Of a stretch of 64,000 nt of DNA, positions 26,804 to 50,172 are shown piece after piece. Position numbers and translations under genes: made by a program. This DNA is from Methanobacteriota archaeon (lineage in GTDB: Archaea > Thermoplasmatota > Thermoplasmata > UBA10834): NCBI GenBank assembly GCA_020347565.1, contig CP070732.1:243582-307581 (forward strand). Direction: 5' to 3'. Every line of letters begins with the position of its first letter. Position 1 is the stretch's first letter. Below the pieces are notes generated by a model. It saw only the letters and a list, made by a program, of their open reading frames with translations, was not told the DNA's origin and searched no databases.

Positions 26804-26814
26804 CTTTCATCAAT

Positions 26815-27795
26815 TCAACTCAACTCCACACGAGGGTCCAAATACAACATCACAACGTCCGAGACGAAGTTGGCGATCAGCACAGCGACCGCTATCAAGA
26901 AGAACGCAGCCTGGAGCACTGGCCAATCCTCTTCAAAGACTGCATCTATCGTCGCCCATCCCACCCCAGGATATTCGAAAACGTATTCCACCATGAACGC
27001 CCCGCCAACGATGTACGCAATGGTCAGTGCAATCAGTATGAGCATCGGCAGCATAGCGTTCGGCACAGCATGATCCTTCAATACCGACCCTTCAGGCAGG
27101 CCTTTTGCTCTCGCAGTGGTTATGTAGTCCTCCGTCATCACATCGGACAGAGCGCCGCGCATCATGAGAGAGAATGTCGCAATGTACACGAGCACTAGAC
27201 AGGTCACGGGCATGACCAAGTGGGACAAGAGGTCCTTAACTGATGCAAGGGTGAACTCGAATTCTTCCCCGATCTCCAGCGCTCTGGAAGGTGGGAAGAT
27301 CTCCCACGTTACGGCAAACAGCATCACCATTATCATGGCAAGCCAGAAAGTGGGCATTGCATAGAAGAAGAGCGAGAATGCAAGAGACCCAGAGTCGAAC
27401 AAACTGCCTCGCTTCCATGCTGCGATAATCCCAATGAGCATGCCAATCACGATCATGAAGAATGAGGCAACGCCGACAAGGAGCAGAGTCCACGGTATGT
27501 ACTCAAAGATGAAATCCATCGCCGGCATCTTATATTGAAAGGACTCGCCGAAATCGAGAGTGAAGACACCCTTGATGTATGTGATGAACTGCTCGGTCAG
27601 AGGGTCGTCCAGGCCGTACCTTTCGATCAGCTTATCCTTGTACTCATCGGGGATCGCGGGGTCAGACGGAACCATGAACCGCATCGGATCCCCAGGCATC
27701 ATTCGAAAGAGTATGAAGTTGATGCATATCACTAGGAGAAACGTGACGAACAGGCTTATGAATCTCCTCAGTAGTATTCGCCTGAAGTTCCTCAT
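26815..27795 (-). CDS. ABC transporter permease, DppB/OppB family
   Basis: ARAKGLPEGSVLKDHAVPNAMLPMLILIAL... and C-terminal MLYLDPRVELS. Confidence 0.85.
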   Translation of the reverse strand: MRNFRRILLRRFISLFVTFLLVICINFILFRMMPGDPMRFMVPSDPAIPDEYKDKLIERYGLDDPLTEQFITYIKGVFTLDFGESFQYKMPAMDFIFEYIPWTLLLVGVASFFMIVIGMLIGIIAAWKRGSLFDSGSLAFSLFFYAMPTFWLAMIMVMLFAVTWEIFPPSRALEIGEEFEFTLASVKDLLSHLVMPVTCLVLVYIATFSLMMRGALSDVMTEDYITTARAKGLPEGSVLKDHAVPNAMLPMLILIALTIAYIVGGAFMVEYVFEYPGVGWATIDAVFEEDWPVLQAAFFLIAVAVLIANFVSDVVMLYLDPRVELS

Positions 27796-27885
27796 GCGTT
27801 GGCTCCACTCATCAAAGGCGTGTCTTAGTCTGCGACGGTGTCATCTCGCGGAAATGGTCGAAAGGAAGAGGTTTAAGGTGTTTGC

Positions 27886-30675
27886 TTACGTCTCAGGAGG
27901 AGGTTCCTCAGGAGGAGCTTCCTCAGGAGGTGCGCCCTCTATGGTCTCCGGCTCCGGGCCTTTTCTCCGCTTCAAGAGCAAAGCCGCAGCCGCTACAGCA
28001 GCAATGAGTGCCAGTATCCCGACAACGATCGCTATGGTGCCCAATCCTCCTCCGCCGTCCTCATCCTCTTCAACGGCGGTCAGGTGGATGGTCAAACTCG
28101 CGGTCTCATTTGAGACCACTGTGACGGTCTCTGTGTCGTTCGTTTCGTACCCCGTCTTGCTGACAACGACTTCGTAGGTGCCCTCATCAACAAGAGTGAT
28201 CTCGAATGAACCACTGTCGTCGGTCTTCTTCGCATACGCTGCCTCCTCGTCGCCGGGACGGTACAGTTCTACCAGAGCGCCCGCGATTGCGACGCTCGTG
28301 TCCACAGAGTCCAGAACATCTCCTGCAACAGAACCAGAGGTTACACTCAGTGTGAAATTCTGCCATGTAGTATTGCCCATTACGACAGTCACGCTGGCAC
28401 TCTCGTTCGAGTATCCTTCTGCGGTCGCATAGATCTCATAGGTTCCAGACTCGACGGTATGGTTGTAGAATCCTTCCTCATCGGAGGATTGCTGACTGGA
28501 GGCTTCTGAGACAATCACCAAAGCTCCCGCAATCGGCTCACCTTCGGTATCATTCACATATCCGATGATCCACCCAGCATCTACAGGCACATCGATGACG
28601 GTGACCGTTATCGAGTCCAGATTACCACTCAACCCTTCTGGATCCTTAACTTCCAGGGTGACGGTAGATTCACCAGTTTCGTTGAAGAAGTGCTTGATGT
28701 TCTGGCCGTACAAGGTCGTCGTATCAAGAAGCTCCATGATTGTCCAAGTCCAGTTCAGCTCTTCGTCAGGGGATTCCAGGTCGTCTGCAGAGCCGGAGAA
28801 TGTCGCCTCCGTCCCGACAAACACTGTCCTGTCGTCTCCATCCATGTCCACATTGTACGGTGCTGTGTTTCCTGTGCTACCGATCGGCGTGATTGCGAAA
28901 TAGTACCAAAACGAACTGGGGCTTATCCCGGTTAAGACTTCCATATCGGGGAAGTTCTCGTACTCGTCAGTCCGGTAGCCAATCAAGCCGGACGGATACA
29001 CAAGACAGATGTACGGGCAGTCCCGATACACGATTTGCTGCATCTCGTGGACTATCGCCTGTCGCTCGTACAGGTCCATCGCTTCCTGCTGGTCCCACCA
29101 CAGCTGGTCGTAATAAGGATTCGTGTAGAAGCAATCGGACCACGCGGTGGTGTCGCTATTGTCCACGGGTATCTCATCCGTGGTCAACACGGACAGGAAC
29201 CATGTCGGGTCGACGTCGGGCCACCAGCTCCAGATGAACATGTCGTACTCCATATTGGACATTAGGTCGTATAGCTTCCCCTCAGACTCGTCGTATAGGT
29301 TGACTTTGACGCCAATATCTGCCCACCATATCTGCATCATCTCGGCAGTCTGTTCGTCATGGATGTTCGCGCGGATGTAGTAGAACTCGAATTCGAGGAG
29401 CGCGCCACTCGACTCGTTCTCCCGGACGGTCGGGCTGCTGATGTACCTGTATCCTGCATCCTCCAACATCTGGTTGGCTGCTGCGACGCAGTCCTCGTGT
29501 GAACCGTAGTCCCACCTCTCCTCCTCAGGCACATTGTAATGCCAGAAAGGCGTCGCAGGCGGTATGAGCCCATAGGCTGGTTGAGCCATGCCTTGGTGGA
29601 TTTCATTTGCGATGTACTCTATGTCCGTGGCCATCGTACACGCCTGCCTGACCGTCAGGTTCGTGGTCTCGTAATTCGTTGAAGCGGTGGGGAAGTTGCG
29701 TTCTCCACCAGTTTCCGACAACCTCCATTCTTTGGGCGCACAATTGAATCCGAATTCCTCAAGGATGAGTGTGGCGGGTGTCTGCCCATCAATGTCTGGG
29801 TTCGCGATGACGGTCTCCCATACGGACGGTGGTACGCCGTCGACCACATCGATATCTCCTGTCTCGAGAGCGGTAATCAGCGCATTGTCGCTCTTGTATA
29901 TGACGAAGATCAGTTTGTCGATATTCACCGAGTCGACTTCGATTCCTGGAAGGCGGTGGTACGGTTTCTGAGCGAGAAGATGGATTTCTCCCTCCGCCAT
30001 TCTGTATTCTTCCAGAATGAACGGACCAGAGCCGACGGGGCCATCTGGGAAGTAATCCGTTTCAAACATATCCACCGTATCGATTACGCCATCATCCCTC
30101 ACCTTACTCCAGAGGTGCTCCGGGAGGATCGGGACTATCAAGGATAGCATATTGGCCTTCGGTCTCAACAGGTCTATCTGAACAGTGTAGTTGTCAAGTG
30201 CGGTGACTTCGTCGAAGCCTTCTAGATAGCCAGCCAGAAGTGCGCATTCCTGTGGATAATCCATTATCATCTTGAACGTGAACTCAACGTCATGAGCCGT
30301 TACGGGAAGTCCGTCGTGCCAGTACGAGTCCTCAACGAGATGGTAGGTCCAAGTCAAGTTGCCGTTGCTGACTTCATGCGACGCTGCAAGTTGCGGATAC
30401 GGTTCCATCATCGGGCCAACGGCATAGAGGAACTCATACGTCATGTGCGCGACAGACCATGATGTGCCAGCCATCATATCGAACGGGTTGAAGGTGTCTG
30501 GGTCTTCCTTCACCCCTATTCTGTACTCATAATACGTTTGAACGGCTCCGACCGACGGAGCTGTCACAGCGAGCGTTGCCAGCGCCGTGAGCAGCAAGCA
30601 CACAACAATCGCCAAGGACACGAAGTAGTGCAGTCTGCATTTGTCAAACAAGCTCGAGTAATCCATCTCATTCAT
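27886..30675 (-). CDS. ABC transporter substrate-binding protein, family 5 (peptide/opine/nickel type), with ~350-aa C-terminal Ig-like/PKD + carboxypeptidase-regulatory-like extension and C-terminal TM anchor
   Basis: N-terminal signal/TM; ~560-aa SBP_bac_5-like core; beta-rich repeats (VTVIDVP..., YEIYATAEGY..., YEVVVSKTGY...); C-terminal hydrophobic anchor followed by KRRKGPEPETIEGAPPEEAPPEEPPPET. Confidence 0.75.
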   Translation of the reverse strand: MNEMDYSSLFDKCRLHYFVSLAIVVCLLLTALATLAVTAPSVGAVQTYYEYRIGVKEDPDTFNPFDMMAGTSWSVAHMTYEFLYAVGPMMEPYPQLAASHEVSNGNLTWTYHLVEDSYWHDGLPVTAHDVEFTFKMIMDYPQECALLAGYLEGFDEVTALDNYTVQIDLLRPKANMLSLIVPILPEHLWSKVRDDGVIDTVDMFETDYFPDGPVGSGPFILEEYRMAEGEIHLLAQKPYHRLPGIEVDSVNIDKLIFVIYKSDNALITALETGDIDVVDGVPPSVWETVIANPDIDGQTPATLILEEFGFNCAPKEWRLSETGGERNFPTASTNYETTNLTVRQACTMATDIEYIANEIHQGMAQPAYGLIPPATPFWHYNVPEEERWDYGSHEDCVAAANQMLEDAGYRYISSPTVRENESSGALLEFEFYYIRANIHDEQTAEMMQIWWADIGVKVNLYDESEGKLYDLMSNMEYDMFIWSWWPDVDPTWFLSVLTTDEIPVDNSDTTAWSDCFYTNPYYDQLWWDQQEAMDLYERQAIVHEMQQIVYRDCPYICLVYPSGLIGYRTDEYENFPDMEVLTGISPSSFWYYFAITPIGSTGNTAPYNVDMDGDDRTVFVGTEATFSGSADDLESPDEELNWTWTIMELLDTTTLYGQNIKHFFNETGESTVTLEVKDPEGLSGNLDSITVTVIDVPVDAGWIIGYVNDTEGEPIAGALVIVSEASSQQSSDEEGFYNHTVESGTYEIYATAEGYSNESASVTVVMGNTTWQNFTLSVTSGSVAGDVLDSVDTSVAIAGALVELYRPGDEEAAYAKKTDDSGSFEITLVDEGTYEVVVSKTGYETNDTETVTVVSNETASLTIHLTAVEEDEDGGGGLGTIAIVVGILALIAAVAAAALLLKRRKGPEPETIEGAPPEEAPPEEPPPET

Positions 30676-30868
30676 GATCCCTCAACCCCCGATGCTACGA
30701 TTTGATAGCCCAAGAGAAGAAACAATGAATCGAAGCTATATTAATCGACTTATCGATGTGTGGCCTGCACATTGGATCCCCCCGATGCTGCTTTCACCTC
30801 GTAGCATTGCACAATGGATATCTGGCCAACCCATTATAAAGCTTCTTCTATCGCGAAGGGCAACAGCG

Positions 30869-30878
30869 ATATATAAGA
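30869..30878 (+). promoter_or_regulatory. TATA box for MttB paralog 2
   Basis: gatatataag, followed by GGGAGG SD and the TTG start at 30916. Confidence 0.45.
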
Positions 30879-30915
30879 TGTCTGACATGCAGGCTATTGA
30901 CGGGAGGCATCGAAC

Positions 30916-32373
30916 TTGGAAATCAAGGCGCCGAAGGGCGGTCAATTGGAACTCTTATCTCGCGACGACCTGGACAAGATTCACGGCGCCACAGTCGAAA
31001 TCCTTCAGAGATTAGGGATGAAGATCTGGGAGCCAACTGCCTTGAAGCTGTTCAAAGATGCTGGAGCCGACGTCGACGAGAAGACAATGATGGTCCGCAT
31101 CCCAGAGAACCTCCTCAAAGAGACTGTTCGGAAGGCTCCTCAGGAGTTCAAGCTCTATGGGAGGGATCCGGACTATATTCTCAACATGGCCGAAAACAAT
31201 GTCCACATCGGACCATCTGGTCTCGCCGTAAGAGTGCATGACCTCGACGGCAAGATCAGGCCTGGGAAGCTGAAGGACGTCGGAAACCTCGCGAGGCTCA
31301 TCGACGCTCTGGAGAACATCCATATGAATGTCATGAGCGTCACCCCGTCCGACGTCCCGGACGATCTGTATCACCTTCATGGAATCATGGAGGATTGGAG
31401 GAACTCAGTCAAGACGACTGATGGATACAATTGGACCGCAAGGAAGGCCCAAGAGACCATAGACATGGCGTCGATTCTCAGGGGAGGCACAGAGGAACTG
31501 ATGAAGAAGCCGTGCCTTCTTGGTTTCACGAATCCCGTCAGCCCTATGCAGCAATCCAAGGAGCTGATCGAGGGGGCGCTGGTCTACGCGAAGTACAAGC
31601 AGCCGATGATCTACGCTCCTGAAGCACTTGCGGGCGGCACCGCACCCGCGACCCTCGCAGGCCTGCTTGCACAGCAGAACGCTGAGGTGTTATCTGGAAT
31701 CATGATATCCGAGCTCGCGAACCCCGGAGCTCCCGTGTTCTACGGGACGGTCTCGGCGGCGCTGGACATGAAGACGGGAGCGACAGCCCTTGGGGGGCCT
31801 GAAGTCGGACTGCTGAATATCGCGACTGGACAGCTCGGAAGATACTACGGGCTCCCGCGAAGAGGCACGGGCGGCAACTCCGATTCAAAGGCATTGGACG
31901 CTCAGGCAGGGTTGGAGACGGCGACGAACATGCTCATGGCAGGACTCGCAGGGATGAATTTCATCTATGACGCCTGCGGCTCCCTCGAGGGCAGCATAAC
32001 GACGTCCTATGAGAAACTCGTGATTGACAACGAAATCGCCGGTATGGTCACGAGGATCCTTGGCGGCATAGAGGTCACGGAGGAAACGCTCGCGGTTGAC
32101 GAGATCTGCAGAGTCGGGCCGAATGCCAGCTTCCTCGGGACGTCGTTCACGGCGAAGCACTTCAGGAAGGAGCACTTCCTCCCAACGCTGCTTGACCGCA
32201 GGTCACTGGAATCGTGGCTGAAAGCCGGCTCGAAAGACATCACCGCGGTCGCGCGAGAGAAGGCAAAGCAGATACTGAAGGAGCACGAGCCTGTGCCCAT
32301 GGACAAAGGCGTCACAGCAGAGCTAGAAGAATACGTGAAGAAGGCGACAAAGACGAAGGCGACAAAGACATAG
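30916..32373 (+). CDS. MttB-superfamily (COG5598) protein, non-pyrrolysine, paralog 2 (~70% identical to paralog 1)
   Basis: 485 aa with no internal TAG. ELLSRDDLDKIHGATVEIL and LAGGTAPATLAGLLAQQNAEVLSGI...GGPEVGLLNIATGQLGRYYGLPRRGTGG are near-identical to paralog 1. In-frame stop lies 15 nt upstream; TTG start at 30916; GGGAGG SD ~9 nt upstream; TATA gatatataag at 30869-78. Confidence 0.8.
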   Translation: MEIKAPKGGQLELLSRDDLDKIHGATVEILQRLGMKIWEPTALKLFKDAGADVDEKTMMVRIPENLLKETVRKAPQEFKLYGRDPDYILNMAENNVHIGPSGLAVRVHDLDGKIRPGKLKDVGNLARLIDALENIHMNVMSVTPSDVPDDLYHLHGIMEDWRNSVKTTDGYNWTARKAQETIDMASILRGGTEELMKKPCLLGFTNPVSPMQQSKELIEGALVYAKYKQPMIYAPEALAGGTAPATLAGLLAQQNAEVLSGIMISELANPGAPVFYGTVSAALDMKTGATALGGPEVGLLNIATGQLGRYYGLPRRGTGGNSDSKALDAQAGLETATNMLMAGLAGMNFIYDACGSLEGSITTSYEKLVIDNEIAGMVTRILGGIEVTEETLAVDEICRVGPNASFLGTSFTAKHFRKEHFLPTLLDRRSLESWLKAGSKDITAVAREKAKQILKEHEPVPMDKGVTAELEEYVKKATKTKATKT

Positions 32374-32513
32374 GGACTCTGAAACGATTGCGCCAGCTGT
32401 CCCCTGAATCTGCAACCCGGGACTCGATCTGGAGCGCAGAGGCGGAGGGGGCCACAACACGACGAGGCTGGATTGAAGCCCTGTCGCAGACGATCCACGC
32501 GCGCAGTTTTGCT

Positions 32514-33569
32514 CTAGATGCTGAACCTCACGAACTGGTTCTCACAGGGCGATCCATGGGCTATCCAGAACTCCCTCTTCGAGGGCACACTGATCCACGA
32601 ATCCAGGGTGAGTCCCCGCTCCTTCGGACCCGGATCATCTCCTGGGTGATGGCAGATCGAGGCCGGATAATCCACATGGTCCCGCAAGAAGCCCATGCAT
32701 GTTTCCAGGTCTATCTTGCCTCGGTTCTCCCTCAACAGCCTGTTCATTCTGTTGTGGCGGATTATGCTGCAAGAGGTTACTCCAGTGTTCTGCGTCGTTC
32801 GGAACTTGTCCGACACAAAGTGGTTGGCGTGGCCTATGTACTCTCCGCTGTAGGAGATATCCAGATCGTTAGGTGTTGCTTCAACGTTGTACAATTCGGT
32901 CTCATTCGTTATGACGAAGTTGAAGTATCCTGCTCTGTCCGCTCTTCGAACGGCGTCCAGCGCCTTCCCCAAGGTCTTCTGCTTCAGAACTTCAGCCACT
33001 ATGAGGTAGGAAGGCACTCCAGCAGTCATTTCCTTCTGCGGCACAGTGTTCCAGTTGATGCTGATCCCGCTCGAATTCAATCCAGCACAGGCCAGCATGC
33101 CTGGGTTGGTGTAATCCAGGATGTCAGGACCGTTTTCCCTCCTGATCTTGAATAGCAGGCTGAGCTCCCCATCCCACCACTCTTTTTCAAGACCATCCCA
33201 TGTTTGCCCAGCATACGTCTCGCCTTTTTCTGTCGCATTGCCTGTCGCGGCAAATGCTGTGCAACCGGGACGGTCGAAATCGCTTCTCTCCTCGAGGGCG
33301 TTTATCATCACTATCTCTTCATAGGCCCGCTCCGATCCTTCCGCAATGCCTCTGAGCTCGTCAGCGATTTCCGGAGAGTATTCCCGGATGAAAGGCTCGT
33401 ACTTGCTAGCATGTCTCAGCAACTGGTCTTTGGTCTGTCTACCGGCGAACTCCTGGTAGAACTGCTCCTCTATCATCCGGGTGATAAGGCTCTTGCAGAT
33501 CTCGCCATAGCCGAAACCCCTGTCGTATGCGTTGCCGCTCAGATCCATTGTGAAAAGGCTCTTTGCCAT
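32514..33569 (-). CDS. C45-family Ntn amidohydrolase/acyltransferase (acyl-CoA:6-APA acyltransferase / choloylglycine-hydrolase-like fold)
   Basis: Predicted autoprocessing site ...DFDRPG|C103TAFAATG with catalytic Cys at position 103, as in isopenicillin-N acyltransferase; ~350 aa. Confidence 0.65.
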   Translation of the reverse strand: MAKSLFTMDLSGNAYDRGFGYGEICKSLITRMIEEQFYQEFAGRQTKDQLLRHASKYEPFIREYSPEIADELRGIAEGSERAYEEIVMINALEERSDFDRPGCTAFAATGNATEKGETYAGQTWDGLEKEWWDGELSLLFKIRRENGPDILDYTNPGMLACAGLNSSGISINWNTVPQKEMTAGVPSYLIVAEVLKQKTLGKALDAVRRADRAGYFNFVITNETELYNVEATPNDLDISYSGEYIGHANHFVSDKFRTTQNTGVTSCSIIRHNRMNRLLRENRGKIDLETCMGFLRDHVDYPASICHHPGDDPGPKERGLTLDSWISVPSKREFWIAHGSPCENQFVRFSI

Positions 33570-33738
33570 GATGATGCTCTCCCCTGGTTCCTGATTACCG
33601 CAACCACCATAAGCATTGCTGTGTCTTGATGTTCAGTGCGTTGCCGACCTATTCGTGTGAGCGCCGAATTCGCGTGCCTGAAGGGGAGCCAAGGGTTTAT
33701 CTCTGCCCTTTCCCTCCCAGGCGTCAGGAGGGCTACTC

Positions 33739-35190
33739 GTGAAGGGGATTCCGTGCAAACAGATGATCAAGATACTGACCGACGAACAGGTGGAGAAGGT
33801 TCACGAGGCCTCCCTCAAGATACTTGAGGGGACGGGCGTCAGGTTCGATAGCGCAGACGCGAGGCGCCGCCTGATGGACTCTGGCGGGATTGCGCACACG
33901 GACAGGAAGGACGTCATCACTTTCCCCAGAAGCGTGATTGAGGAGGCAATCGGCAAGGTCCCGCGCGAGGTCAGCTACTTCGCGAGGGACCCCGAATGGG
34001 ACATCAGGTACGACGGTGAACACACGTACCCGTACGCTGGAGGCGGCGACCCAAACGTCCTGGACATCGACACTGGGAAGGCGAGGCCCTCAACGTTTGC
34101 TGACGTCGAAGACGCCGCGAGACTCGGTGATGCGCTCGAGAACAACAACTCGGTTTCACATATGGTCATCGCCAACGATGTCCCTCCCTGGATGATAGAG
34201 CTCAGGACCATGGAGGCGGGGATGAAGAACTCGGCGAAGGCCTTGTCCCACCACGCCACACGTGCGGAGACCGTGGATTACATGGTCAAGATATGGTCTT
34301 GCGTTGCTGGCGGCGAGGAGGAGTTCAGGAAGAGGCCTCTGCTCAGCCTGGGCAGCTCCCCGAGCAGTCCGCTGACCTACGCCAGCCACGTGTGCGATGT
34401 CCTGATCAGGAGCGTGGAGCTAGGGGTTCCGTTCTCCGTCATTCCTTGCCCCGTCTCGGGCGGGACCGGCCCGGCGACGCTCGGAGGGTCCCTGGCGCTG
34501 CAGAACGCCGAGACGCTGGCCGGCTTGGTGCTGATGCATGCGGCCGCCCCGCCGCTCCCGACAGTGTATTGCGGCAGGGTCTGCTTCATGGACCCGAGGA
34601 GCGGACGGGACCTATGGGGAGTGCCAGAGGAGGGACTGGTATCGGCAGCCCTCGTCCAGCTCGGCAAGAGATACGATATGGTTTGTGACGCCTGCGGCAC
34701 GGCCTCCGACGTGACGAGATGGGACCTCCAGATCGGGTTCGAGTGCATGATGACTACGCTACTGCCAGTCATGGCCGGGGCCGAGAGCGTTTCCGGCATC
34801 GGCGGCGGATGGGAAGGCGCCTCAAGCCTCGAGATGATGGTCGTCGGCAACGAGGTATACGACGACGTCGCCAGGGTCATGAGGGGCATCGCCCTGGACG
34901 ACGACGTGCTCGGTTTGGATGTAATCGATGGGGTGGGGCACATGGGCACATACCTCACGCAGCCTCACACCGCGAAGTACCTGCGGAAGGGGGAGCTGAG
35001 GATCTCGTCGCTCTGGGACAAGAGGACTTCCGAGAGCGCCTCGAGGGAAGGGTCAAAGCCCTTGATCGAGACCGCGAGGGATGTTGCCAAAAGCGTATTG
35101 AAAGAGCATGAGCCGATGCCCTTGGACAGGGACGTCGAGCAGGAGATTGGCACGATACTGAAAGACGCGCAGAAGGCCCTCGCAAGATAG
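33739..35190 (+). CDS. MttB-superfamily (COG5598) protein, non-pyrrolysine, divergent paralog 3
   Basis: 483 aa with no internal TAG. ILTDEQVEKVHEASLKIL, PATLGGSLALQNAETLAGL; alignable to paralogs 1 and 2 over the full length but much more divergent. GTG start with AGGAGG SD 8 nt upstream; alternative ATG at 33763. Confidence 0.75.
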   Translation: MKGIPCKQMIKILTDEQVEKVHEASLKILEGTGVRFDSADARRRLMDSGGIAHTDRKDVITFPRSVIEEAIGKVPREVSYFARDPEWDIRYDGEHTYPYAGGGDPNVLDIDTGKARPSTFADVEDAARLGDALENNNSVSHMVIANDVPPWMIELRTMEAGMKNSAKALSHHATRAETVDYMVKIWSCVAGGEEEFRKRPLLSLGSSPSSPLTYASHVCDVLIRSVELGVPFSVIPCPVSGGTGPATLGGSLALQNAETLAGLVLMHAAAPPLPTVYCGRVCFMDPRSGRDLWGVPEEGLVSAALVQLGKRYDMVCDACGTASDVTRWDLQIGFECMMTTLLPVMAGAESVSGIGGGWEGASSLEMMVVGNEVYDDVARVMRGIALDDDVLGLDVIDGVGHMGTYLTQPHTAKYLRKGELRISSLWDKRTSESASREGSKPLIETARDVAKSVLKEHEPMPLDRDVEQEIGTILKDAQKALAR

Positions 35191-39900: not shown

Positions 39901-41847
39901 TCATGCCTGAGGGAGAACGACACTGAACTCCGCCCCCTGCGAGTGGTCTCCCGGCACACGATCGCCCACGATGAGCCTTCCACCGTACCTGTCCGTCAGC
40001 GTCTTGGCGATTGACAGGCCCAGGCCCGTCCCGGTGAACCTCTTGGACGAGTCGAGGCGCATGTATCTGTCGAACAGGTCCTCCCTCTTGTCCGGCGGAA
40101 TGCCAGGCCCGTGGTCGGATATGCTCACCTTCCACGCGGGCTTGCCGGAGATGTCCGCCTCCTCGATGCGCGCGCTCACCTCGCCTCCCCCACCGTATCT
40201 GACGGCGTTCGAGAGGAGGTTGACGAAGATCTCCTTCGAGAACGCGCCGACCTTGACGTTCCGGGTGCCTTCGCCGAAGTCCCTGGCGACGGCCGCCGCC
40301 TCTCCCTGGCACGAGCTGCACACGTCCCCTATCGCCTCGTCGACTATCGAGCACAGGTCCTTCGTCTCCCGCGCCTCGTCCCGGCTGGTGTAGACCTTCG
40401 AGAACCACCGCACCTTCTCGATGAGCTCGCCGCTCCTGCAGATCTGGACGTGCGCCGTCTTCAAGTTGGCGTCTCCGCTCGACCCCTGGTCGCCGCTCTC
40501 CAACGCCACCTCCATATATCCCCGCGCTGAGCCGATGTAGTTGCCGAGGTCGTGGATGAGGAGGTCGTTGTACAGCTGGAGCAGCGTCCTGACCTTCTCG
40601 GTCTTCATCCTCGCCTCCTCGAGATCGGTGATGTCGTACGCTATCTCCAGGCGGACGTACCGTCCATCGGGCCATTCGATCGCCCTGTCGACGCAGCTGT
40701 AGGTCCTCCCGGTCCTGGTGTTCTCGAACTTCCAACTGTACGGAGGCGCCGGCGTTCCGTTCTCCTTCATCAGCCTGTCGTTCGTGCAGAACGGGCACGG
40801 CGACGTCTGCCCCCGCTGCAGCACCTCGTAACACTTCCTTCCGACGAGGTTCGGGCCGAACAGCTCCTCTAGCTTCCGGTTGACCGCGAGGAGCTCATAC
40901 GTCTCCATGTCTGCGACGTAGACGGCCGATTCCAGAGCACTGAGGATCGTGAATAGCTCGGACCGTCCCTCTTCCAGGCTATCGACCATGTTCATGGCGC
41001 CCTGGTACAGACGGGCCTTGTCGCACGAGACTCCGATGTGGTCTGCCATCGACCGAATCATACGAACGCCCGGGTCCTCCAGTGTGGAACGGTCCCGCGA
41101 TGCGACGGCGACCGCGCCTATGACCTCCTTCCTCGCGATTATGGGCACGCTCGCGACGGACTCGGCGTCCGGGGCGAACGGGTCCACCGGCCCGGTTACC
41201 ACGGTCTCCCCTTCCCGCGCCGCCATGGTGCAGGCATTCTCGAGCGCTTCCCTGACGGCGCCCTGCTCCTCACTGAAGAAGAAATCCTCGTCGCCGCATT
41301 TCAGGTACACCGCCGACTTGAGGCTGAACCGGTCGCGTATGCTGGCGACCGATCTCCGTGCCACTGTCCTTTCGTCGATCGGCTGGTGAGCTATGGCGAG
41401 GTCGGAGACGGCCTCGGCGACGGAGGACTGCCGACGCAGATCCTCGGACACCCTGGCATGTCTCAAGCATATGTGAGTGAACATCTCTGCGAGTCCGTCC
41501 GCAATCTCATACCAATGCGGAGCATCCTCGTCCTCGCATCTTGTCTTCAAGACATCGAATGCCGTGCGCATCCCAAGCGATATGACTGCAAGCGTGTCGG
41601 AGAGTTCGAAGCCCTCCTTCGCACGCCTCCCGGAAATGTCAGTTACGATTCGGTCCAGACGTCGCGAGTCGCCCGACTCCAGCCGATGGATCATCGCGTC
41701 GAGGAGCCCCATCAAATCGGAGCGCATCTCGTCCGGCGGCTCGTCCGAGTATCGCGTGGACGATGCCCTGGTGCGCTCTGCCCATTCGTCGGCGATGTCC
41801 TCCCTGCTCTCTGCAAGGAGCTCCGCTAGTGAAACCACTTCTTGCAT
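39901..41847 (-). CDS. sensor histidine kinase with N-terminal sensory (GAF/PAS-like) domains
   Basis: H-box HDLGNYIGSARGYMEVAL; HATPase_c N/G boxes (LLSNAVRYG, DHGPGI, GTGLGLSI). No membrane helices obvious. No response regulator adjacent. Confidence 0.8.
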   Translation of the reverse strand: MQEVVSLAELLAESREDIADEWAERTRASSTRYSDEPPDEMRSDLMGLLDAMIHRLESGDSRRLDRIVTDISGRRAKEGFELSDTLAVISLGMRTAFDVLKTRCEDEDAPHWYEIADGLAEMFTHICLRHARVSEDLRRQSSVAEAVSDLAIAHQPIDERTVARRSVASIRDRFSLKSAVYLKCGDEDFFFSEEQGAVREALENACTMAAREGETVVTGPVDPFAPDAESVASVPIIARKEVIGAVAVASRDRSTLEDPGVRMIRSMADHIGVSCDKARLYQGAMNMVDSLEEGRSELFTILSALESAVYVADMETYELLAVNRKLEELFGPNLVGRKCYEVLQRGQTSPCPFCTNDRLMKENGTPAPPYSWKFENTRTGRTYSCVDRAIEWPDGRYVRLEIAYDITDLEEARMKTEKVRTLLQLYNDLLIHDLGNYIGSARGYMEVALESGDQGSSGDANLKTAHVQICRSGELIEKVRWFSKVYTSRDEARETKDLCSIVDEAIGDVCSSCQGEAAAVARDFGEGTRNVKVGAFSKEIFVNLLSNAVRYGGGGEVSARIEEADISGKPAWKVSISDHGPGIPPDKREDLFDRYMRLDSSKRFTGTGLGLSIAKTLTDRYGGRLIVGDRVPGDHSQGAEFSVVLPQA

Positions 41848-41982: not shown

Positions 41983-41994
41983 TTAATATATATT
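41983..41994 (+). promoter_or_regulatory. TATA box for the fbp-tpiA operon
   Basis: ttaatatatatt, ~45 nt upstream of ATG 42038, with GGAGG SD. Confidence 0.45.
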
Positions 41995-42037
41995 CTATGC
42001 TCCTCATTCGCCCCAATCATAGGTCGGAGGAAGAGGA

Positions 42038-43174
42038 ATGCCGGAGAAGGTAACAGTATCTCTCATCAAGGCGGATGTCGGCTCAGTCGCGGGACATTCG
42101 AAGCCGCATCCGAAGATGATGGAGACGGCGCGCGCAACGGCAGCCAAGGGCGTCTCGGACGGGTTGATATTGGACTTCTATGTCAGTCGCTGCGGGGACG
42201 ACATGGAGCTGCTTATGACCCACAGGAACGGCGAGAACCACAAGGACGTCCACGAGCTCGCGTGGAACGCGTTCATGAACGCTGCATCGGAGGCGAAGAA
42301 GATGAGGCTCTACGCGGCTGGACAGGACCTTCTCTCGGACGCGTTCTCGGGCAACGTGAGAGGGCAGGGCCCGGGCGCCGCTGAGATGGAGTTCGAGGAG
42401 CGCAAGACGGAGCCGATGCTCGTGTTCATGGCGGACAAGTGCGGCCCATCGGCGTACTCTCTCCCGATATCCAAGATCTACATGGACCCTTTCACGACGA
42501 CCGGCCTGGTCATCGACCCGCGCGCCCATCAGGGGTACGACATCGAGGTGGTGGACGTTGTTGATCACAAGAAGGTCGTCATGAGTTCCCCTGCGGAGAT
42601 GTACGACATACTGGCGCTCATAGGCGACACGACGAGATACGCCGTCAAGCGGGTGACGCACAGAGATATCGGCATCGCGGCGGTGGTCTCGACGGAGAAG
42701 CTGAACATGCTTGCAGGCAAGTACGTCGGCAAGGACGACCCCGTCATGCTGGTCAGGTGCCAGTCGGGACTGCCCGCAGTCGGTGAGGTCCTGCAGCCGT
42801 TCGCGTTCCCGCAGCTCGTCGCGGGCTGGATGAGGGGCTCGCACTACGGTGCATGGTACCCGTGCGGCGTGGACGATTCGGACCCTTCATACCATGACGG
42901 ACCGCCGCGCGTATGCGCCCTCGGCCTGCAGATTAGCAACGGGATGATCCAGGGCCTGGAGGCGCCGGGCGGGCCGGTTGGCGCGCACCAGCCGGTTGAC
43001 TATTTCTCGGGGTCCGAGTGGGATTATGTGCGCAACAAAGCGATGGACATATCCGTCTACATGAGGGGGCACGGGCCGTTCATGCCAGGTATCGTCTCGC
43101 CGGACGACCTGGAGTACACGACGAGGCCGGAGATATTGAAGAAGCTCGAGCCCAGGATGAGCCCGCTCGACTGA
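42038..43174 (+). CDS. fbp: fructose-1,6-bisphosphate aldolase/phosphatase (class V FBPase, archaeal bifunctional)
   Basis: N-terminal MPEKVTVSLIKADVGSVAGH... is characteristic of FBPase V; 378 aa; GGAGG SD 8 nt upstream; TATA ttaatatatatt at 41983-94. Confidence 0.9.
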   Translation: MPEKVTVSLIKADVGSVAGHSKPHPKMMETARATAAKGVSDGLILDFYVSRCGDDMELLMTHRNGENHKDVHELAWNAFMNAASEAKKMRLYAAGQDLLSDAFSGNVRGQGPGAAEMEFEERKTEPMLVFMADKCGPSAYSLPISKIYMDPFTTTGLVIDPRAHQGYDIEVVDVVDHKKVVMSSPAEMYDILALIGDTTRYAVKRVTHRDIGIAAVVSTEKLNMLAGKYVGKDDPVMLVRCQSGLPAVGEVLQPFAFPQLVAGWMRGSHYGAWYPCGVDDSDPSYHDGPPRVCALGLQISNGMIQGLEAPGGPVGAHQPVDYFSGSEWDYVRNKAMDISVYMRGHGPFMPGIVSPDDLEYTTRPEILKKLEPRMSPLD

Positions 43175-43184
43175 GGTGTCCTGA

Positions 43185-43865
43185 TTGGAGTCGAACGACG
43201 CCGTCATCGCCGTGAACTTCAAGACCTACGCCGAGGCGGTGGGCCCGCGTTCGGTCGCCCTTGCGAAGACATGCGAGGCCGTCGCGAAGGAGACGGGCTT
43301 CACGATCATCGCGGCGCCGCCGTTGCCGGACCTGGCTTCAGTCGCGGCTTCCGTGTCGATACCCGTCTACTCGCAGCACGTCGACGACGTCCGGCAGGGC
43401 AGCACGACAGGACACGTGACGCCGGAGAACGTGGCGGCCAGTGGAGCGTCGGGCACGCTGATCAACCACTCCGAGAGGAGGATGACGATAGCCCACATAG
43501 AGTCGCTCGTGGGAAGGTGCAGGGCGCTCGGGCTGTCGACGATAGTGTGCACCAACAATATCGGGGTCACCAGGGCCTGCGCGGCGTTCCAACCCGACTT
43601 CGTGGCGATCGAGCCGCCCGAGCTCATAGGCGGCGACGTGTCCGTCACAACAGCGAACCCCGGCATTGTCAGCGACTCCGTGGGGGCGGCGAAGGCCGTC
43701 TCGCCGGGCGTGCGCGTCCTTTGCGGGGCTGGCGTTAAGAACGGCGCGGATGTGGAAAAGGCGGTCGAACTCGGAACAGACGGTGTCCTGCTCGCGAGCG
43801 GCGTCGTCAAAGCAACGGACCCGGCGAAGGTGCTTGCAGACCTCGTATCCGGGCTCAGGCGCTGA
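43185..43865 (+). CDS. tpiA: triosephosphate isomerase (archaeal short type)
   Basis: VIAVNFKTY, INHSERR catalytic region; ~225 aa archaeal TIM; 10 nt after fbp (operon). Confidence 0.85.
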   Translation: MESNDAVIAVNFKTYAEAVGPRSVALAKTCEAVAKETGFTIIAAPPLPDLASVAASVSIPVYSQHVDDVRQGSTTGHVTPENVAASGASGTLINHSERRMTIAHIESLVGRCRALGLSTIVCTNNIGVTRACAAFQPDFVAIEPPELIGGDVSVTTANPGIVSDSVGAAKAVSPGVRVLCGAGVKNGADVEKAVELGTDGVLLASGVVKATDPAKVLADLVSGLRR

Positions 43866-43921
43866 GGGCAGACTGCCTGTAGCCGTACAACAGTTGTCCG
43901 ATCGGCCCCTCGCGACGAGTA

Positions 43922-46084
43922 TTGTCACAAGGTCCGCATCTCATCGTCGCGGCGTCGGTGCTGATGTTGTCAACGCTCGGGCAGGCTATGGCGGCTACGA
44001 GCGCCGACGCTGGCGCCCCTCGACCAATCGTCCTCGGCGAGGGGGCGGTGCCGGAGCTGCTTATCTCGGAGTTCTACGCGAACGCCTTGGCGGAGGACGA
44101 GTACGTGAGGATTCGGTCTGCTGCGACGTGGGATGTGCAGATGTGTGGGTGGCGGCTGACCGACGGCGAGGGCACGTTGGAGTTCGTCAGCGCCGCCGTT
44201 ATCGGCGCCGGCGGGGAGGTTTCGGTGTCGTTCAACTCGTCGTCCTACGTCGCCGCATACGATGTCCTCCCTGACTTCGCCGTCGACGCCTCCTGTCAGA
44301 CAGGCGGGCTGGAGGCCAGCGGCTCGTTCAGGTTGGGGGACTCCGGCGACTCCATATCGCTCGTGGACCCGTCGGGCTCTGAAGTCGACTGCGTCCTGTA
44401 CGGTGACGTGGCGGTCGGCTCCTGCGCGTGGAGCGGAGCGCCGTTGCCCGCCCCAAGGGATGGAGAGGTCTTCAGGCGCATCACCGTCGAAGGCAGGGCC
44501 ATCGACACCGACACCGTGTCGGACTGGCAGCCATTCCGTGAGTTCAGGTACGGGTACACGGACCAGATGCCGCGCGCGTTCGACATAGCGCCCGGAGGCC
44601 TCAGCGCGTTCGTCAGCCCTGACTGCTCCCTCGATGTCGTCCTGGAGAGAGTCGGCTCTGCGAGAAAGGAGGTCGTGTTGTGTTCCTATGAATTCCAGTC
44701 GGCCGAGCTGTGCCTGCTTCTGCTCGACGCAATGGCGAGAGGCGTGTCCGTCAGGGTGCTCGTCGAAGGGAGCCCTGTGGGCGGGATGAGCGACGCTGAG
44801 GTGGCAGCCCTGTCCGTCCTTGAATCGGCGGGAGCGGATGTGCGCGTCGTCGCGGGTACTCTCAGGGAAGGCGTCGCAAGGCATTTCGCAGTGCTGCACT
44901 CGAAATACATGGTGGTGGACTCAGAGGAGGCGCTCGTGCTGTCCGAGAACTTCGTGAGCGACGGCATCCCTATCGACAGGGTCTTTGGGAACAGAGGATG
45001 GGGCGTCGCGGTCAACTCACCAGAGCTGGCATGCTATCTCCGCCGCGTCTTCGATTGCGATTCGAGGAGCACGAGGCCAGACATCGTCAGATGGTCTGAC
45101 GACGAGAGATACGATCCGCTGGCGGACGCACCCGCGGGCGAACCGACGGAGCATCCACGGGGTTGTCTGCCGCCCTTCGTGTCGACATCCGCGTCGAGGG
45201 TGGTCTTGTACATGTCACCAGATGCGAACGTCGTCGCGCCCTTCCTGTGCGCCCTCATGGCCTCTGCACGCGACATCTCCGTCGAGCTCCTGCATGCAGA
45301 TCTGGCCTGGGACACCCGCTGGAGCGTGCGCGACGTCATGAGCCCTCTGCTCTCGACGCTCCTGGAGCGCATGCGCGACGGAGCGTCGTGCAGGCTGTTA
45401 CTCGACTCCTCGTGGTACAACGCTGCGAGGAACGAGGAGGTGACTGCGGCGATGACCGCTGCCGCATACGCCGAAAGCCTCACAGGCTCCTTTCGGCTCA
45501 TCAGCGCTGGCTCTCCCATCTCCGTGCTGCATAACAAGGGCGTCATACTCGACGGCGACGTCGCATTGGTGTCCAGCAACAACTGGGTGTACGCGTCCTT
45601 CGCGAGGAACAGAGAGCTGGCAGCGGTCATCGAGTCGAGCGAGGTCTGCGGCTACTTCGCCGCGGCATTCGACATGGACTGGATTCCGGATACGACGCCT
45701 CCGACGATGGAGCTGAGGCCTGAGTTCGTCGCGTCGCCCGGAGAGCGCGTGCTCCTATCGCCCGACACCTGCCAAGACGACAGGACGATCGCCTGCTACC
45801 GCTGGGACATCGGCATCGACGGCGAGGTCGACGGCCGCGGCCCCCAGATGTCGTATCTCGCTCTCGTGCCAGGGAGTGTCCCGGTCTCGCTGACAGTCGT
45901 GGATGCCTGGGGCAACTCCGCCACCGCGATGGCCGTCATCAGGGTCGTTGGGAACGGGGCCCCCGCCGTGGAGGACGACATCGACTGGACGGATGCGGCA
46001 CGGGCAGCGGCTCCGCTGGCCGTCGGCATAGGGTTTCTGCTCATCAGGATGCTGGGCCCACGTGGATCCGGCCGCCAGGCGTGA
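43922..46084 (+). CDS. secreted/membrane-anchored phospholipase-D-superfamily protein (two HKD motifs) with C-terminal PKD domain and TM anchor
   Basis: Signal peptide HLIVAASVLMLSTLGQAMA|A. HKD motif 1: LHSKYMVVDSEEALVLSEN. HKD motif 2: LHNKGVILDGDVALVSSNN. PKD-like WDIGIDGEVDG. C-terminal hydrophobic helix plus RGSGRQA. TTG start. Confidence 0.7.
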   Translation: MSQGPHLIVAASVLMLSTLGQAMAATSADAGAPRPIVLGEGAVPELLISEFYANALAEDEYVRIRSAATWDVQMCGWRLTDGEGTLEFVSAAVIGAGGEVSVSFNSSSYVAAYDVLPDFAVDASCQTGGLEASGSFRLGDSGDSISLVDPSGSEVDCVLYGDVAVGSCAWSGAPLPAPRDGEVFRRITVEGRAIDTDTVSDWQPFREFRYGYTDQMPRAFDIAPGGLSAFVSPDCSLDVVLERVGSARKEVVLCSYEFQSAELCLLLLDAMARGVSVRVLVEGSPVGGMSDAEVAALSVLESAGADVRVVAGTLREGVARHFAVLHSKYMVVDSEEALVLSENFVSDGIPIDRVFGNRGWGVAVNSPELACYLRRVFDCDSRSTRPDIVRWSDDERYDPLADAPAGEPTEHPRGCLPPFVSTSASRVVLYMSPDANVVAPFLCALMASARDISVELLHADLAWDTRWSVRDVMSPLLSTLLERMRDGASCRLLLDSSWYNAARNEEVTAAMTAAAYAESLTGSFRLISAGSPISVLHNKGVILDGDVALVSSNNWVYASFARNRELAAVIESSEVCGYFAAAFDMDWIPDTTPPTMELRPEFVASPGERVLLSPDTCQDDRTIACYRWDIGIDGEVDGRGPQMSYLALVPGSVPVSLTVVDAWGNSATAMAVIRVVGNGAPAVEDDIDWTDAARAAAPLAVGIGFLLIRMLGPRGSGRQA

Positions 46085-46124
46085 GCGCGCAACGTTAAAG
46101 AGCGGAGTCCGGGTTCATCCTCCG

Positions 46125-46565
46125 ATGGCGATCCGAGAGTTCACTCCGGCGGACATGCAACCGGTCATGCGAATAGTGAAGGCTTCGCTCGGGGAGACCT
46201 ACCCCCCATCGCTTTACCTCACAATCCATAACATCTGGCCGTCAGGGTTCCTCGTTCTTGAGGTGGAGGGCAGAATCGAGGCGTTCGTCGCCGCGGTGGA
46301 ATCTGAGAAGAACGTCGTGCGCGTGCTGATGCTCGCCGTCACCCCTGAGCACCGGGGCCGCTCGTTCGGGTCGCTGTTGATGAAGGAGCTTCACGCCAGA
46401 TGCATCGCCGCGGCCGCCCACATGGTCAAGCTGGAGGTGCGGAAGAGCAACAGTTCGGCGCTGTCGTTCTACGAGCGCCTGGGCTACTCCGTGGTGGGCG
46501 AGTTGCAGAACTTCTATCTCAACGGCGAGGGCGCCTACGTGATGAGGAAGACGCTTGGCAGCTGA
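46125..46565 (+). CDS. GNAT N-acetyltransferase (RimI-like)
   Basis: Acetyl-CoA-binding motif A region RVLMLAVTPEHRGRSFGSLLM and motif B FYERLGY; start set at ATG 46125. Confidence 0.65.
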   Translation: MAIREFTPADMQPVMRIVKASLGETYPPSLYLTIHNIWPSGFLVLEVEGRIEAFVAAVESEKNVVRVLMLAVTPEHRGRSFGSLLMKELHARCIAAAAHMVKLEVRKSNSSALSFYERLGYSVVGELQNFYLNGEGAYVMRKTLGS

Positions 46566-50040: not shown

Positions 50041-50127
50041 GCCGAGGTAGCTAAGCCCGGTTTAAGGCGGTAGCCTCGAGAGCTACTGGTGCTTGTCACC
50101 ACGGGAGTTCAAATCTCCCCCTCGGCG
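50041..50127 (+). tRNA. tRNA-Ser (anticodon CGA), class II with long variable arm
   Basis: Acceptor GCCGAGG/CCTCGGC; anticodon stem GTAGC/GCTAC with loop CTCGAGA (anticodon CGA); variable arm TGGTG...CACCA; T-arm GGGAG-TTCAAAT-CTCCC; discriminator G followed by genomic CC. TATA catatag is ~35 nt upstream. Confidence 0.7.
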
Positions 50128-50172
50128 CCTGCACCGCAAAGACGGAGGACACATCGGAACTCGGCGAGGGAC

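Follow-up and report, generated by a model that had tools for sequence, protein, structure and literature searches.

A predicted surface-tethered phosphodiesterase with two HKD motifs and a lamin tail domain, fixed in position across Thermoplasmata

What does an archaeon do with a phospholipase D (PLD)-like enzyme on the outside of its cell, and which phosphodiester would that enzyme cut? The question is raised by a single forward-strand gene (43922..46084) in a 64,000-nucleotide stretch of contig CP070732.1 from a thermoplasmatal archaeon; the whole stretch is referred to below as the window. A first-pass annotation had placed the open reading frame (ORF) at exactly these positions and on this strand, and had assigned the DNA to an archaeon, which agrees with the archaeal-type fructose-1,6-bisphosphate (FBP) aldolase/phosphatase, triosephosphate isomerase (TIM), and DnaG encoded nearby and with the GenBank label of the record (Methanobacteriota/Euryarchaeota archaeon). 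Thermoplasmata abound in sediments, wetlands, and guts, where detrital macromolecules are believed to supply part of their nutrition, and we know of almost no biochemical work on their surface enzymes.

Because the protein combines an export signal, an intact two-HKD center, and a C-terminal anchor, its sequence identifies it as a predicted type-I, surface-tethered phosphodiesterase of the HKD superfamily. We further propose that it is metal-independent and acts on extracellular nucleic acids, i.e., single-stranded DNA (ssDNA), RNA, or extracellular DNA (eDNA). We advance this second proposal tentatively, as one with nearly an even chance of being right.

Architecture of the protein

The gene begins with TTG and encodes a precursor of 720 amino acids (aa) composed, in order, of a signal peptide, a Lamin Tail Domain (LTD), a bridge, HKD lobes 1 and 2, a PKD domain, a transmembrane (TM) helix, and a basic tail. 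An in-frame TAG at 43880 makes the TTG at 43922 the furthest-upstream start possible, and in an alignment of 26 homologs the start column is common to at least 90% of sequences. Antisense ORFs overlapping the gene are the usual high-GC artefacts. The protein matches GenBank UCE91823.1 at 100%, a record from a metagenome-assembled genome (MAG) that carries the name "lamin tail domain-containing protein". The ORF is a genuine gene, native and under selection, because its third-position GC content (GC3 = 0.81) lies in the usual range for genes of the window, its genomic slot is fixed, and the protein diverges fast around an invariant active site.

The catalytic core is formed by two compact lobes of ~170 aa each. 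Lobe 1 (aa 225-392; 44594..45097, + strand) contains a PLDc_2 match at aa 241-378, and lobe 2 (aa 425-592; 45194..45697, + strand) contains both a PLDc match (aa 535-558) and the second of the PLDc_2 stretches. The checked translations give motif 1 as HSKYMVVDSEEALVLSEN (aa 326-343, nt 44897-44950) and motif 2 as HNKGVILDGDVALVSSNN (aa 537-554, nt 45530-45583), with L340 and S551, respectively, at the motif Gly position. Both complete motifs noted on first inspection are thus present; the spacing of ~220 aa given for them needs correction, since H326 and H537 lie 211 aa apart. Conservation was assessed in a 52-sequence homolog alignment (identities 29-65%), which is also the basis of the family profile and of the AlphaFold2 (AF2) model discussed below. 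In 52/52 sequences, H326, K328, D333, E342, N343, H537, K539, D544, S551, S552, and N554 are invariant; the same holds for N357-R358-G359-W360, which follow motif 1, and for N563-R564-E565, which follow motif 2. The lobes are asymmetric in this respect, with NRGWG in the first and NRE (aa 563-565) in the second.

Profile searches, which had been recommended as the check on the HKD motifs, align them with the PLD superfamily: Pfam PLDc_2 (PF13091) matches in two stretches (E 5.4e-27, 94.7 bits versus a cut-off of 27), and PLDc (PF00614) matches at E 1.4e-7 (31.7 bits versus a cut-off of 21.9). Motif conservation together with these scores is far above chance expectation. Likewise, the AF2 model (mean pLDDT 89.6, pTM 0.84) confirms the two-HKD fold when compared with known HKD enzymes. 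Both lobes are alpha/beta at pLDDT 95-99, and Foldseek pairs the model at probability 1.00 over ~400-490 columns with 7e0m, PLD3/4, F13, Streptomyces PLD, and PssA. On motifs, profile score, and bilobed alpha/beta fold, the protein belongs to the PLD/HKD superfamily. We propose from the model that the two lobes fold into a single pseudo-dimeric active site.

The topology is that of an exported protein anchored at its C-terminus, as first annotated. The N-terminus (aa 1-25; 43922..43996, + strand) resembles a signal peptide (MSQGPHLIVAASVLMLSTLGQAMA, the next residue being A), with a hydrophobicity of 1.85 over a 15-aa window and a putative cleavage site after AMA. The C-terminal TM helix (aa 689-711, core AAAPLAVGIGFLLIRML; hydrophobicity 1.99 over 15 aa) is followed by the basic tail GPRGSGRQA (helix and tail, 45986..46081, + strand). 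In the AF2 model, a helix at aa 6-24 and a disordered linker at aa 21-40 precede the LTD, bridge, lobes, and PKD domain, and a short low-confidence linker leads to the final helix at aa 689-711. Essentially every full-length homolog has the N-terminal hydrophobic segment and the C-terminal TM helix with an R/K-rich tail.

A search for PGF-CTERM or archaeosortase signals, also recommended at the outset, and for GlyGly-CTERM or other sorting signals returned no NCBIfam model at E<=1 apart from a chance-level "GIVxVP" hit (13.2 versus 35 bits); homolog C-termini have in common only the hydrophobic stretch and basic residues. Nor did the homologs contain a consistent lipobox: some have a Cys after the h-region, and UCE91823.1 has none there. 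One sub-clade (P0028, P0030, P0047, P0053, and others) carries a conserved cytoplasmic tail motif, RK(L/V)NH(P/G)(R/K)RD, after the TM helix; it is absent from UCE91823.1.

Two features overlooked by the first-pass annotation, the LTD and a conserved bridge, lie between the signal peptide and the lobes. The LTD (aa 43-161; 44048..44404, + strand) matches PF00932 at E 1.1e-9 (39.1 bits versus 34.3) and is an all-beta sandwich in the AF2 model (pLDDT 84-95); PF00932 had been annotated beforehand in most homologs. The bridge (aa 162-224; 44405..44593, + strand) has the signature DWxPFRE[FYH][RK]YGY and is modeled at pLDDT 78 for the block aa 161-170 and 90-95 for aa 171-220. Its residues W170, R186, D201, W202, R206, and G211 are invariant in homolog alignments.

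The PKD domain (aa 593-676; 45698..45949, + strand), a beta-sandwich in the model and a membrane-proximal stalk, contains WDIGIDGEVDG at aa 628-638 (nt 45803-45835), the stretch from which a PKD-like module had originally been recognized. That recognition gains support at the level of the family profile, for which the PKD domains of known structure in KIAA0319L (E 1.8e-14) and ColH (1.2e-13) are matches; many homologs pass Pfam PKD, and the single sequence falls below the gathering thresholds (PF00801/PF18911: 18.3 bits for PKD_4 and 16.7 bits versus 27 and 23.5).

An exhaustive profile search over 1.84 billion representatives found LTD, bridge, and the two HKD lobes (profile positions ~28-584) in ~130 of the best 150 representatives, where the three parts always occur together. 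This LTD-bridge-HKD2 block is a conserved, reusable unit, and its recognition is new. Relatives of 850-2400 aa hold it once or twice together with extra LTDs, CARDB, and PKD domains, and Chloroflexota proteins with DUF11/CLIPPER repeats contain it as well. None of the multi-module architectures that we looked at contains a second catalytic domain or a recognizable substrate-binding domain.

Paralogous and multi-module proteins of this kind (L113, L114, L115) sit in contexts that give no consistent functional hint. For example, a 1250-aa LTD-HKD2-PKD paralog in a 4.2-Mb Thermoplasmata genome (L113, 8001-13942) adjoins geranylgeranyl-reductase-family and radical-SAM genes, and a 1971-aa double-module protein (L115, 3670-11016) is divergent from a rhomboid protease gene in an arrangement reminiscent of ExeM/rhombosortase. 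Each is a single case.

Nucleic acid or lipid as substrate

Enzymes of the HKD superfamily act through a covalent phospho-histidine intermediate and require no metal ions. In the mechanism that we propose, the N-terminal signal sequence would export the chain, and the C-terminal TM helix and basic tail would hold the protein on the membrane, with the PKD domain as a short stalk and the LTD and bridge packed on the HKD pair as a fixed accessory. The His of one motif would attack the phosphodiester to form the phospho-histidine intermediate, the His of the other would protonate the leaving group, and water would then resolve the intermediate with no need for metal. Acting as an ecto-nuclease, the enzyme would cleave nucleic acids at the cell surface, and the nucleotides or oligonucleotides set free would be taken up as a source of phosphorus, carbon, and nitrogen. 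It would probably be expressed from its own regulated, leaderless promoter in the 56-nt spacer upstream of the gene.

Candidate roles listed by the first-pass annotation, i.e., scavenging of eDNA or other phosphodiesters and remodeling of lipids, still make up the right short list, and the evidence leans toward nucleic acid. Searched against all PDB sequences, the family profile finds its HKD matches in Nuc (4e-13), Zucchini/MitoPLD (5e-13), SpPLD 7e0m (2e-9), NucT (1e-8), and PLD3 (5e-5), and it retrieves no Streptomyces or eukaryotic lipid PLD, Cls, or PssA at E<0.01. The top Foldseek matches are the compact two-HKD protein 7e0m and then the PLD3/PLD4 5'-exonucleases (E 1e-20 to 1e-18). Target-normalized TM-scores are 0.6-0.73 for 7e0m, PLD3/PLD4, and F13 versus 0.42-0.53 for lipid PLDs with large insertions. 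The short loops of SpPLD were remarked upon as nuclease-like by its authors (PMC8004604). In architecture, the layout from signal peptide to basic tail is that of the membrane-bound nuclease ExeM (PMC6085458), and an LTD accompanies a nuclease in Haloferax volcanii Hvo_1477 (PMC3929857) and in DNA-degrading Izemoplasmatales (PMC8289736). Taken together, profiles, modeled fold, and architectural analogy lean to nucleic acid as the substrate.

NCBIfam models show the same lean: family members match DrmC (52/52), NucT (52/52), Cls (35/52), and ClsB (22/52), all below cut-off. Membership of any curated equivalog was considered and rejected, with NucT, DrmC, ClsA/B, and PssA all far below their NCBIfam cut-offs.

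Several points weigh against a nucleic-acid substrate. The ectodomain is strongly acidic family-wide (isoelectric point [pI] 4.3), which is unfavorable for binding a polyanion; we down-weight this argument because other exported proteins of the same organism are equally acidic (pI 4.1), possibly a trait of the whole exoproteome. Neither the protein nor its giant multi-module relatives contain an OB-fold, HhH, or other nucleic-acid-binding domain in Pfam, and the constant neighbors in the loci examined are gluconeogenic genes, not nucleoside or phosphate transporters or nucleotidases. The signal sequence of UCE91823.1 is without a basic n-region. Nor are the closest structural neighbors purely nucleases: SpPLD has been called a phospholipase, F13 belongs to the membrane proteins, and PLD3/PLD4 also synthesize a lipid, S,S-bis(monoacylglycero)phosphate (S,S-BMP; PMC12055030). 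The LTD of ExeM is dispensable for DNA clearing in vivo (PMC6085458). Support for a nucleic-acid substrate is, throughout, indirect.

The principal rival is a lipid-directed HKD enzyme that hydrolyzes or exchanges head groups, either in the outer leaflet of the ether-lipid membrane that carries it or in phospholipids of foreign bacteria encountered at the surface. The prototype of the superfamily is a lipid PLD, and the Cls and ClsB matches among the family members point the same way, although the equivalog cut-offs are missed widely (TIGR04265, 21.4 versus 290 bits; NF008427, 21.6 versus 281 bits). The short PKD stalk and its ~12-aa linker would place the catalytic unit near the membrane, and a lineage-wide gene at a fixed position suits a housekeeping role in the envelope better than optional scavenging. 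In addition, the S,S-BMP made by the PLD3/PLD4 fold neighbors has a glycerol stereochemistry of the archaeal (sn-1) type (PMC12055030). The geranylgeranyl-reductase-family and radical-SAM genes beside the L113 paralog would also fit, but this context is one case. Against a lipid substrate, the PDB profile search is empty of lipid PLD, Cls, and PssA below E 0.01, the compact lobes lack the insertions of Streptomyces and eukaryotic PLDs (hence the lower target-normalized TM-scores), and the LTD fusions in the literature are with nucleases and other hydrolases of soluble substrates. On balance we consider a lipid-directed enzyme unlikely, if still the strongest competitor of a nuclease. A bolder variant, speculative and drawn by analogy, is an outer-leaflet transphosphatidylase that would remodel sn-1-type archaeal head groups as PLD3/4 make S,S-BMP.

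A fixed slot behind fbp and tpiA

Genomic context was compared across 78 loci from genomes and metagenomes, each with a relative at least 30% identical. The gene is inherited vertically and keeps a fixed position; it was found in every related Thermoplasmata locus examined. The order in the window is a GAF-domain histidine kinase with RsbRD_N (39901-41847, - strand; Pfam), the FBP aldolase/phosphatase gene fbp (42038-43174, + strand; Pfam FBPase_3 in orthologous loci), the TIM gene tpiA (43185-43865, + strand; Pfam TIM in orthologous loci), the HKD gene, a GNAT acetyltransferase gene (46122..46565, + strand; Pfam Acetyltransf_1, E 8e-16), a Lon-like AAA ATPase gene (- strand), and dnaG (- strand). 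The tpiA gene lies immediately 5' on the same strand in 60/61 loci with enough flank, and the GNAT gene lies immediately 3' in 55/59. Most of the 78 loci come from one lineage (FBPase at least 81% identical) and are therefore not independent observations. The tpiA adjacency is nevertheless kept at lower FBPase identity: 73% in L003, 64% in a Methanomassiliicoccus MAG, and 49-50% in L041 and L042, the last two having different genes downstream. Exceptions to the slot are a Halobacteriota relative (L004) and a reduced homolog (L007).

The divergent kinase is replaced by an ADP-forming acyl-CoA synthetase in L001 and L002, so the upstream neighbor of fbp is variable. Two loci (L058, 4758-6221; L059, 6929-8392) have ~1.4 kb inserted between the HKD and GNAT genes.

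The 56-nt spacer between tpiA and the HKD gene (pld; 43866..43921, + strand) is conserved in length across loci L001-L112, with a median of 56 nt and no more than 100 nt in 62/65 loci. Within it, two elements are conserved and the remainder drifts freely: a palindrome-like consensus GAAGcCTACgTGTAGC at -53..-38, with the palindrome GAAGCCTACGTGTAGC, and a T-rich GTTTTC at ~-31..-26. The window has AGACTGCCTGTAGC at 43870-43883 and AGTTGT at 43892-43897, the latter ~27 nt before the start. Allowing one mismatch at most, the palindrome occurs 13 times in the window versus 5.0+-2.2 expected, a modest enrichment, and in L048, L103, and L106 it is also found ~190 nt upstream of fbp. We infer that the spacer contains a putative promoter of the gene's own, from which a leaderless mRNA would start, and a palindromic operator directly 5' of the B recognition element (BRE)/TATA position. 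Read-through from upstream is a possible alternative route of expression, as a TATA-like TTAATATATATT (~41984-41995) and a GGAGG, candidate Shine-Dalgarno (SD) signal, precede the fbp ATG; the conserved spacer motif weakens a simple operon read-through model. The fixed slot behind fbp-tpiA, with its promoter- and operator-like spacer, is a new observation.

A broader proposal joins this slot to the protein architecture. LTD-bridge-HKD2 could define an undescribed class of metal-independent ecto-phosphodiesterase that is core to Thermoplasmata and also present in Chloroflexota and in giant archaeal surface proteins, and the fbp-tpiA slot with its palindromic operator could couple the harvest of extracellular phosphodiesters, either nucleic acids or glycerophospho-compounds, to triose-phosphate/gluconeogenic metabolism. 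We regard this proposal as possible, though rather doubtful.

The same slot bears on a further alternative, an enzyme acting on extracellular phosphodiesters of other kinds (e.g., glycerophosphodiesters, teichoic-acid-like polymers, or phosphoglycans), whose products would feed the adjacent triose-phosphate/gluconeogenic enzymes. The fbp-tpiA-pld adjacency is deeply kept even where other neighbors have changed (L041, L042), but it may be inherited gene order only, and the conserved spacer suggests separate transcriptional control. The repeated LTD-HKD2 units with CARDB and PKD domains in giant relatives resemble the arrays of polymer-degrading surface enzymes, and an acidic ectodomain is less problematic for neutral or zwitterionic substrates; set against this, neither Foldseek, the PDB profile search, nor NCBIfam places an HKD enzyme of such substrate range among the close relatives, and no transporter for the products is linked to the gene. 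We judge this alternative improbable.

The family as a whole comprises more than 110 clusters of full-length relatives in Thermoplasmata MAGs and metagenomes (40-65% identity, ~700 aa, same architecture), with automated names ranging from "cardiolipin synthase" to "phospholipase D-like domain-containing protein". The view that such an enzyme is unusual for an archaeon is accordingly not borne out, because the gene is lineage-wide, vertically inherited, and already auto-annotated in GenBank. A suggested gut association likewise finds nothing in its support, the relatives being from environmental metagenome contigs. The one gut-derived relative, from a horse-faeces archaeon (L007, 5704-7044), is reduced to 446 aa, its two HKD lobes being accompanied only by a P/T/V/N/D-rich linker PVSSNDPVTPITPVTPNDPVP and a TM anchor at the N-terminus; it is without LTD, PKD domain, and C-terminal anchor and lies outside the fbp-tpiA slot. 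Bacterial relatives from Myxococcota, Planctomycetota, Elusimicrobiota, and Oligoflexia are 22-29% identical over aa 230-590. Full-text literature searches turned up no paper joining a lamin tail domain with an HKD/PLD enzyme, nor any account of an extracellular phospholipase D family from Thermoplasmata or Methanomassiliicoccales.

Median identity to the window's own proteins is 44% for the HKD protein, 55% for GNAT, 67% for TIM, 75% for DnaG, 82% for the Lon-like ATPase, and 85% for FBPase. Within the HKD protein, the lobes are the most conserved part (mean pairwise identity 0.51-0.53 versus 0.40-0.44 for PKD and LTD), and conservation is lowest in the signal peptide, linkers, and TM helix. 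Such fast divergence in a protein whose active site is invariant, also a new observation, may be the mark of diversifying pressure acting at the cell surface. It could also be taken, with the Ig-like domains at both ends and the existence of pseudo-enzymes in the superfamily (FAM83 and the Pfam iHKD family), to indicate a surface protein that serves chiefly in structure or adhesion, is assembled from Ig-like LTD and PKD modules, and uses its HKD core for binding, with minor catalysis at most. The invariance of all catalytic residues in 52 sequences down to 29% identity, in the most conserved part of the protein, makes that reading very improbable. Finally, an intracellular defense nuclease related to DISARM DrmC (NF038319, the best-scoring NCBIfam model and matched by 52/52 members) is effectively refuted: the score of 64.4 bits is less than half of the cut-off of 133; export signal, PKD stalk, and C-terminal anchor put the enzyme outside the cell; the neighbors are housekeeping genes (fbp, tpiA, GNAT, Lon-like ATPase, dnaG), and neither DrmA nor DrmB nor a methylase is encoded among them; and a vertically inherited, fixed position is unlike a defense island.

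Elsewhere in the window, a lower-GC island (24397-35190; GC 0.54 versus ~0.61) encodes three MttB-superfamily methyltransferases (24397-25863, 30916-32373, 33739-35190), none with an in-frame TAG, and an ABC permease (26815-27795; Pfam) beside an ORF at 25850-26803. The same region includes genes for an M24 peptidase/creatinase-like protein (23055-24335), an AAT-family protein (32514-33569), and a large solute-binding protein. From its gene content, the island looks like a cluster for quaternary-amine or betaine demethylation and uptake. This solute-binding protein, encoded at 27886-30675 (- strand), is a 928-aa extracellular SBP_bac_5 protein with PKD, CarboxypepD_reg, and PEGA-like Ig domains and a pI of 4.1; exported proteins of this organism seem to be uniformly very acidic and rich in Ig domains. 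An Rfam PYLIS_3 match at 31876-31975 (41.9 versus a gathering score of 38 bits) falls inside an MttB-family ORF. Since that ORF has no in-frame UAG, the match probably reflects mttB sequence similarity, and it gives no evidence for methanogenesis or a gut habitat; a pyrrolysine-using methanogen was rejected on the same ground, the mttB-like ORF having no in-frame TAG. The sole tRNA in the window is tRNA-Ser(CGA) at 50041-50129.

Significance and comparison with known systems

Because the HKD gene is found in 78/78 related loci sampled, is predicted to be catalytically intact and surface-exposed, and is preceded by a promoter-like element, it is a good first target for learning what these cells take up. 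Should the protein prove to be a nuclease, archaea would have their first described ecto-nuclease of the HKD type (EDTA-resistant), and LTDs would be associated with nucleases of a third catalytic fold. Should lipids be its substrate, ether-lipid membranes would have their first example of a head-group enzyme that faces outward. Under either reading, two automated names, "cardiolipin synthase" and "lamin tail domain-containing protein", need correction. The gene itself was already auto-annotated; what is new is the argument for a metal-independent ecto-phosphodiesterase, probably a nuclease.

The closest structural match is SpPLD of Serratia plymuthica (7e0m; Foldseek E 1.8e-20, target-normalized TM-score 0.66), which has the same compact two-HKD core and a signal peptide. 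SpPLD and the other ~400-aa secreted bacterial two-HKD proteins are without LTD, bridge, PKD domain, and C-terminal anchor, and identity is ~17%. Several bacterial relatives (L008, L013, L018) match Pfam PLDc_3 (PF13918), whereas the thermoplasmatal HKD family does not; this PLD3/4/5-like model has no match at E<=1 in the 720-aa protein. Mammalian PLD3/PLD4, which act on ssDNA and RNA, are the second-best structural neighbors and likewise are single-pass proteins with a two-HKD domain on the non-cytoplasmic side. Unlike the thermoplasmatal protein, they are glycosylated lysosomal proteins of eukaryotes, type II in topology (N-terminal anchor), that work best at acidic pH and contain neither an LTD nor a PKD domain; identity is again ~17%.

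Lobe by lobe, the best sequence-profile matches are Nuc (pKM101), NucT (H. pylori), and Zucchini/MitoPLD, and the HxK...D...SxN...N-R-E spacing equals that of Zucchini. Those enzymes are homodimers of single-HKD chains of ~155-200 aa, whereas here the two lobes are fused in one monomer, and the NucT equivalog (PRK13912) scores 29.1 bits against a cut-off of 297. Superfamily, two-HKD fold, and motifs are also shared with secreted Streptomyces PLD and with cardiolipin and phosphatidylserine synthases (Foldseek E ~1e-16). Streptomyces PLD differs by a larger core with lipid-gating insertions (target-normalized TM-score 0.50-0.53), and the Cls enzymes differ by N-terminal TM helices and the lack of LTD and PKD domains.

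The overall layout is closest to that of ExeM/Xds of Shewanella and Vibrio, in which a signal peptide, N-terminal LTD, phosphoesterase, linker, C-terminal hydrophobic helix, and basic end follow one another; ExeM is a nuclease retained at the cytoplasmic membrane, with an Arg-rich end (PMC6085458). ExeM/Xds rely on a metal-dependent EEP domain with OB-folds, neither of which has a Pfam match in the 720-aa protein, where a predicted metal-independent HKD pair and a PKD stalk are found instead. Finally, Haloferax volcanii Hvo_1477 has a staphylococcal-nuclease domain, a lipobox anchor, no HKD domain, and a different domain order. Its likeness to the thermoplasmatal protein is that of an archaeal, surface-attached nuclease carrying an LTD, and it has been shown experimentally to be needed for growth on eDNA as a phosphorus source (PMC3929857).

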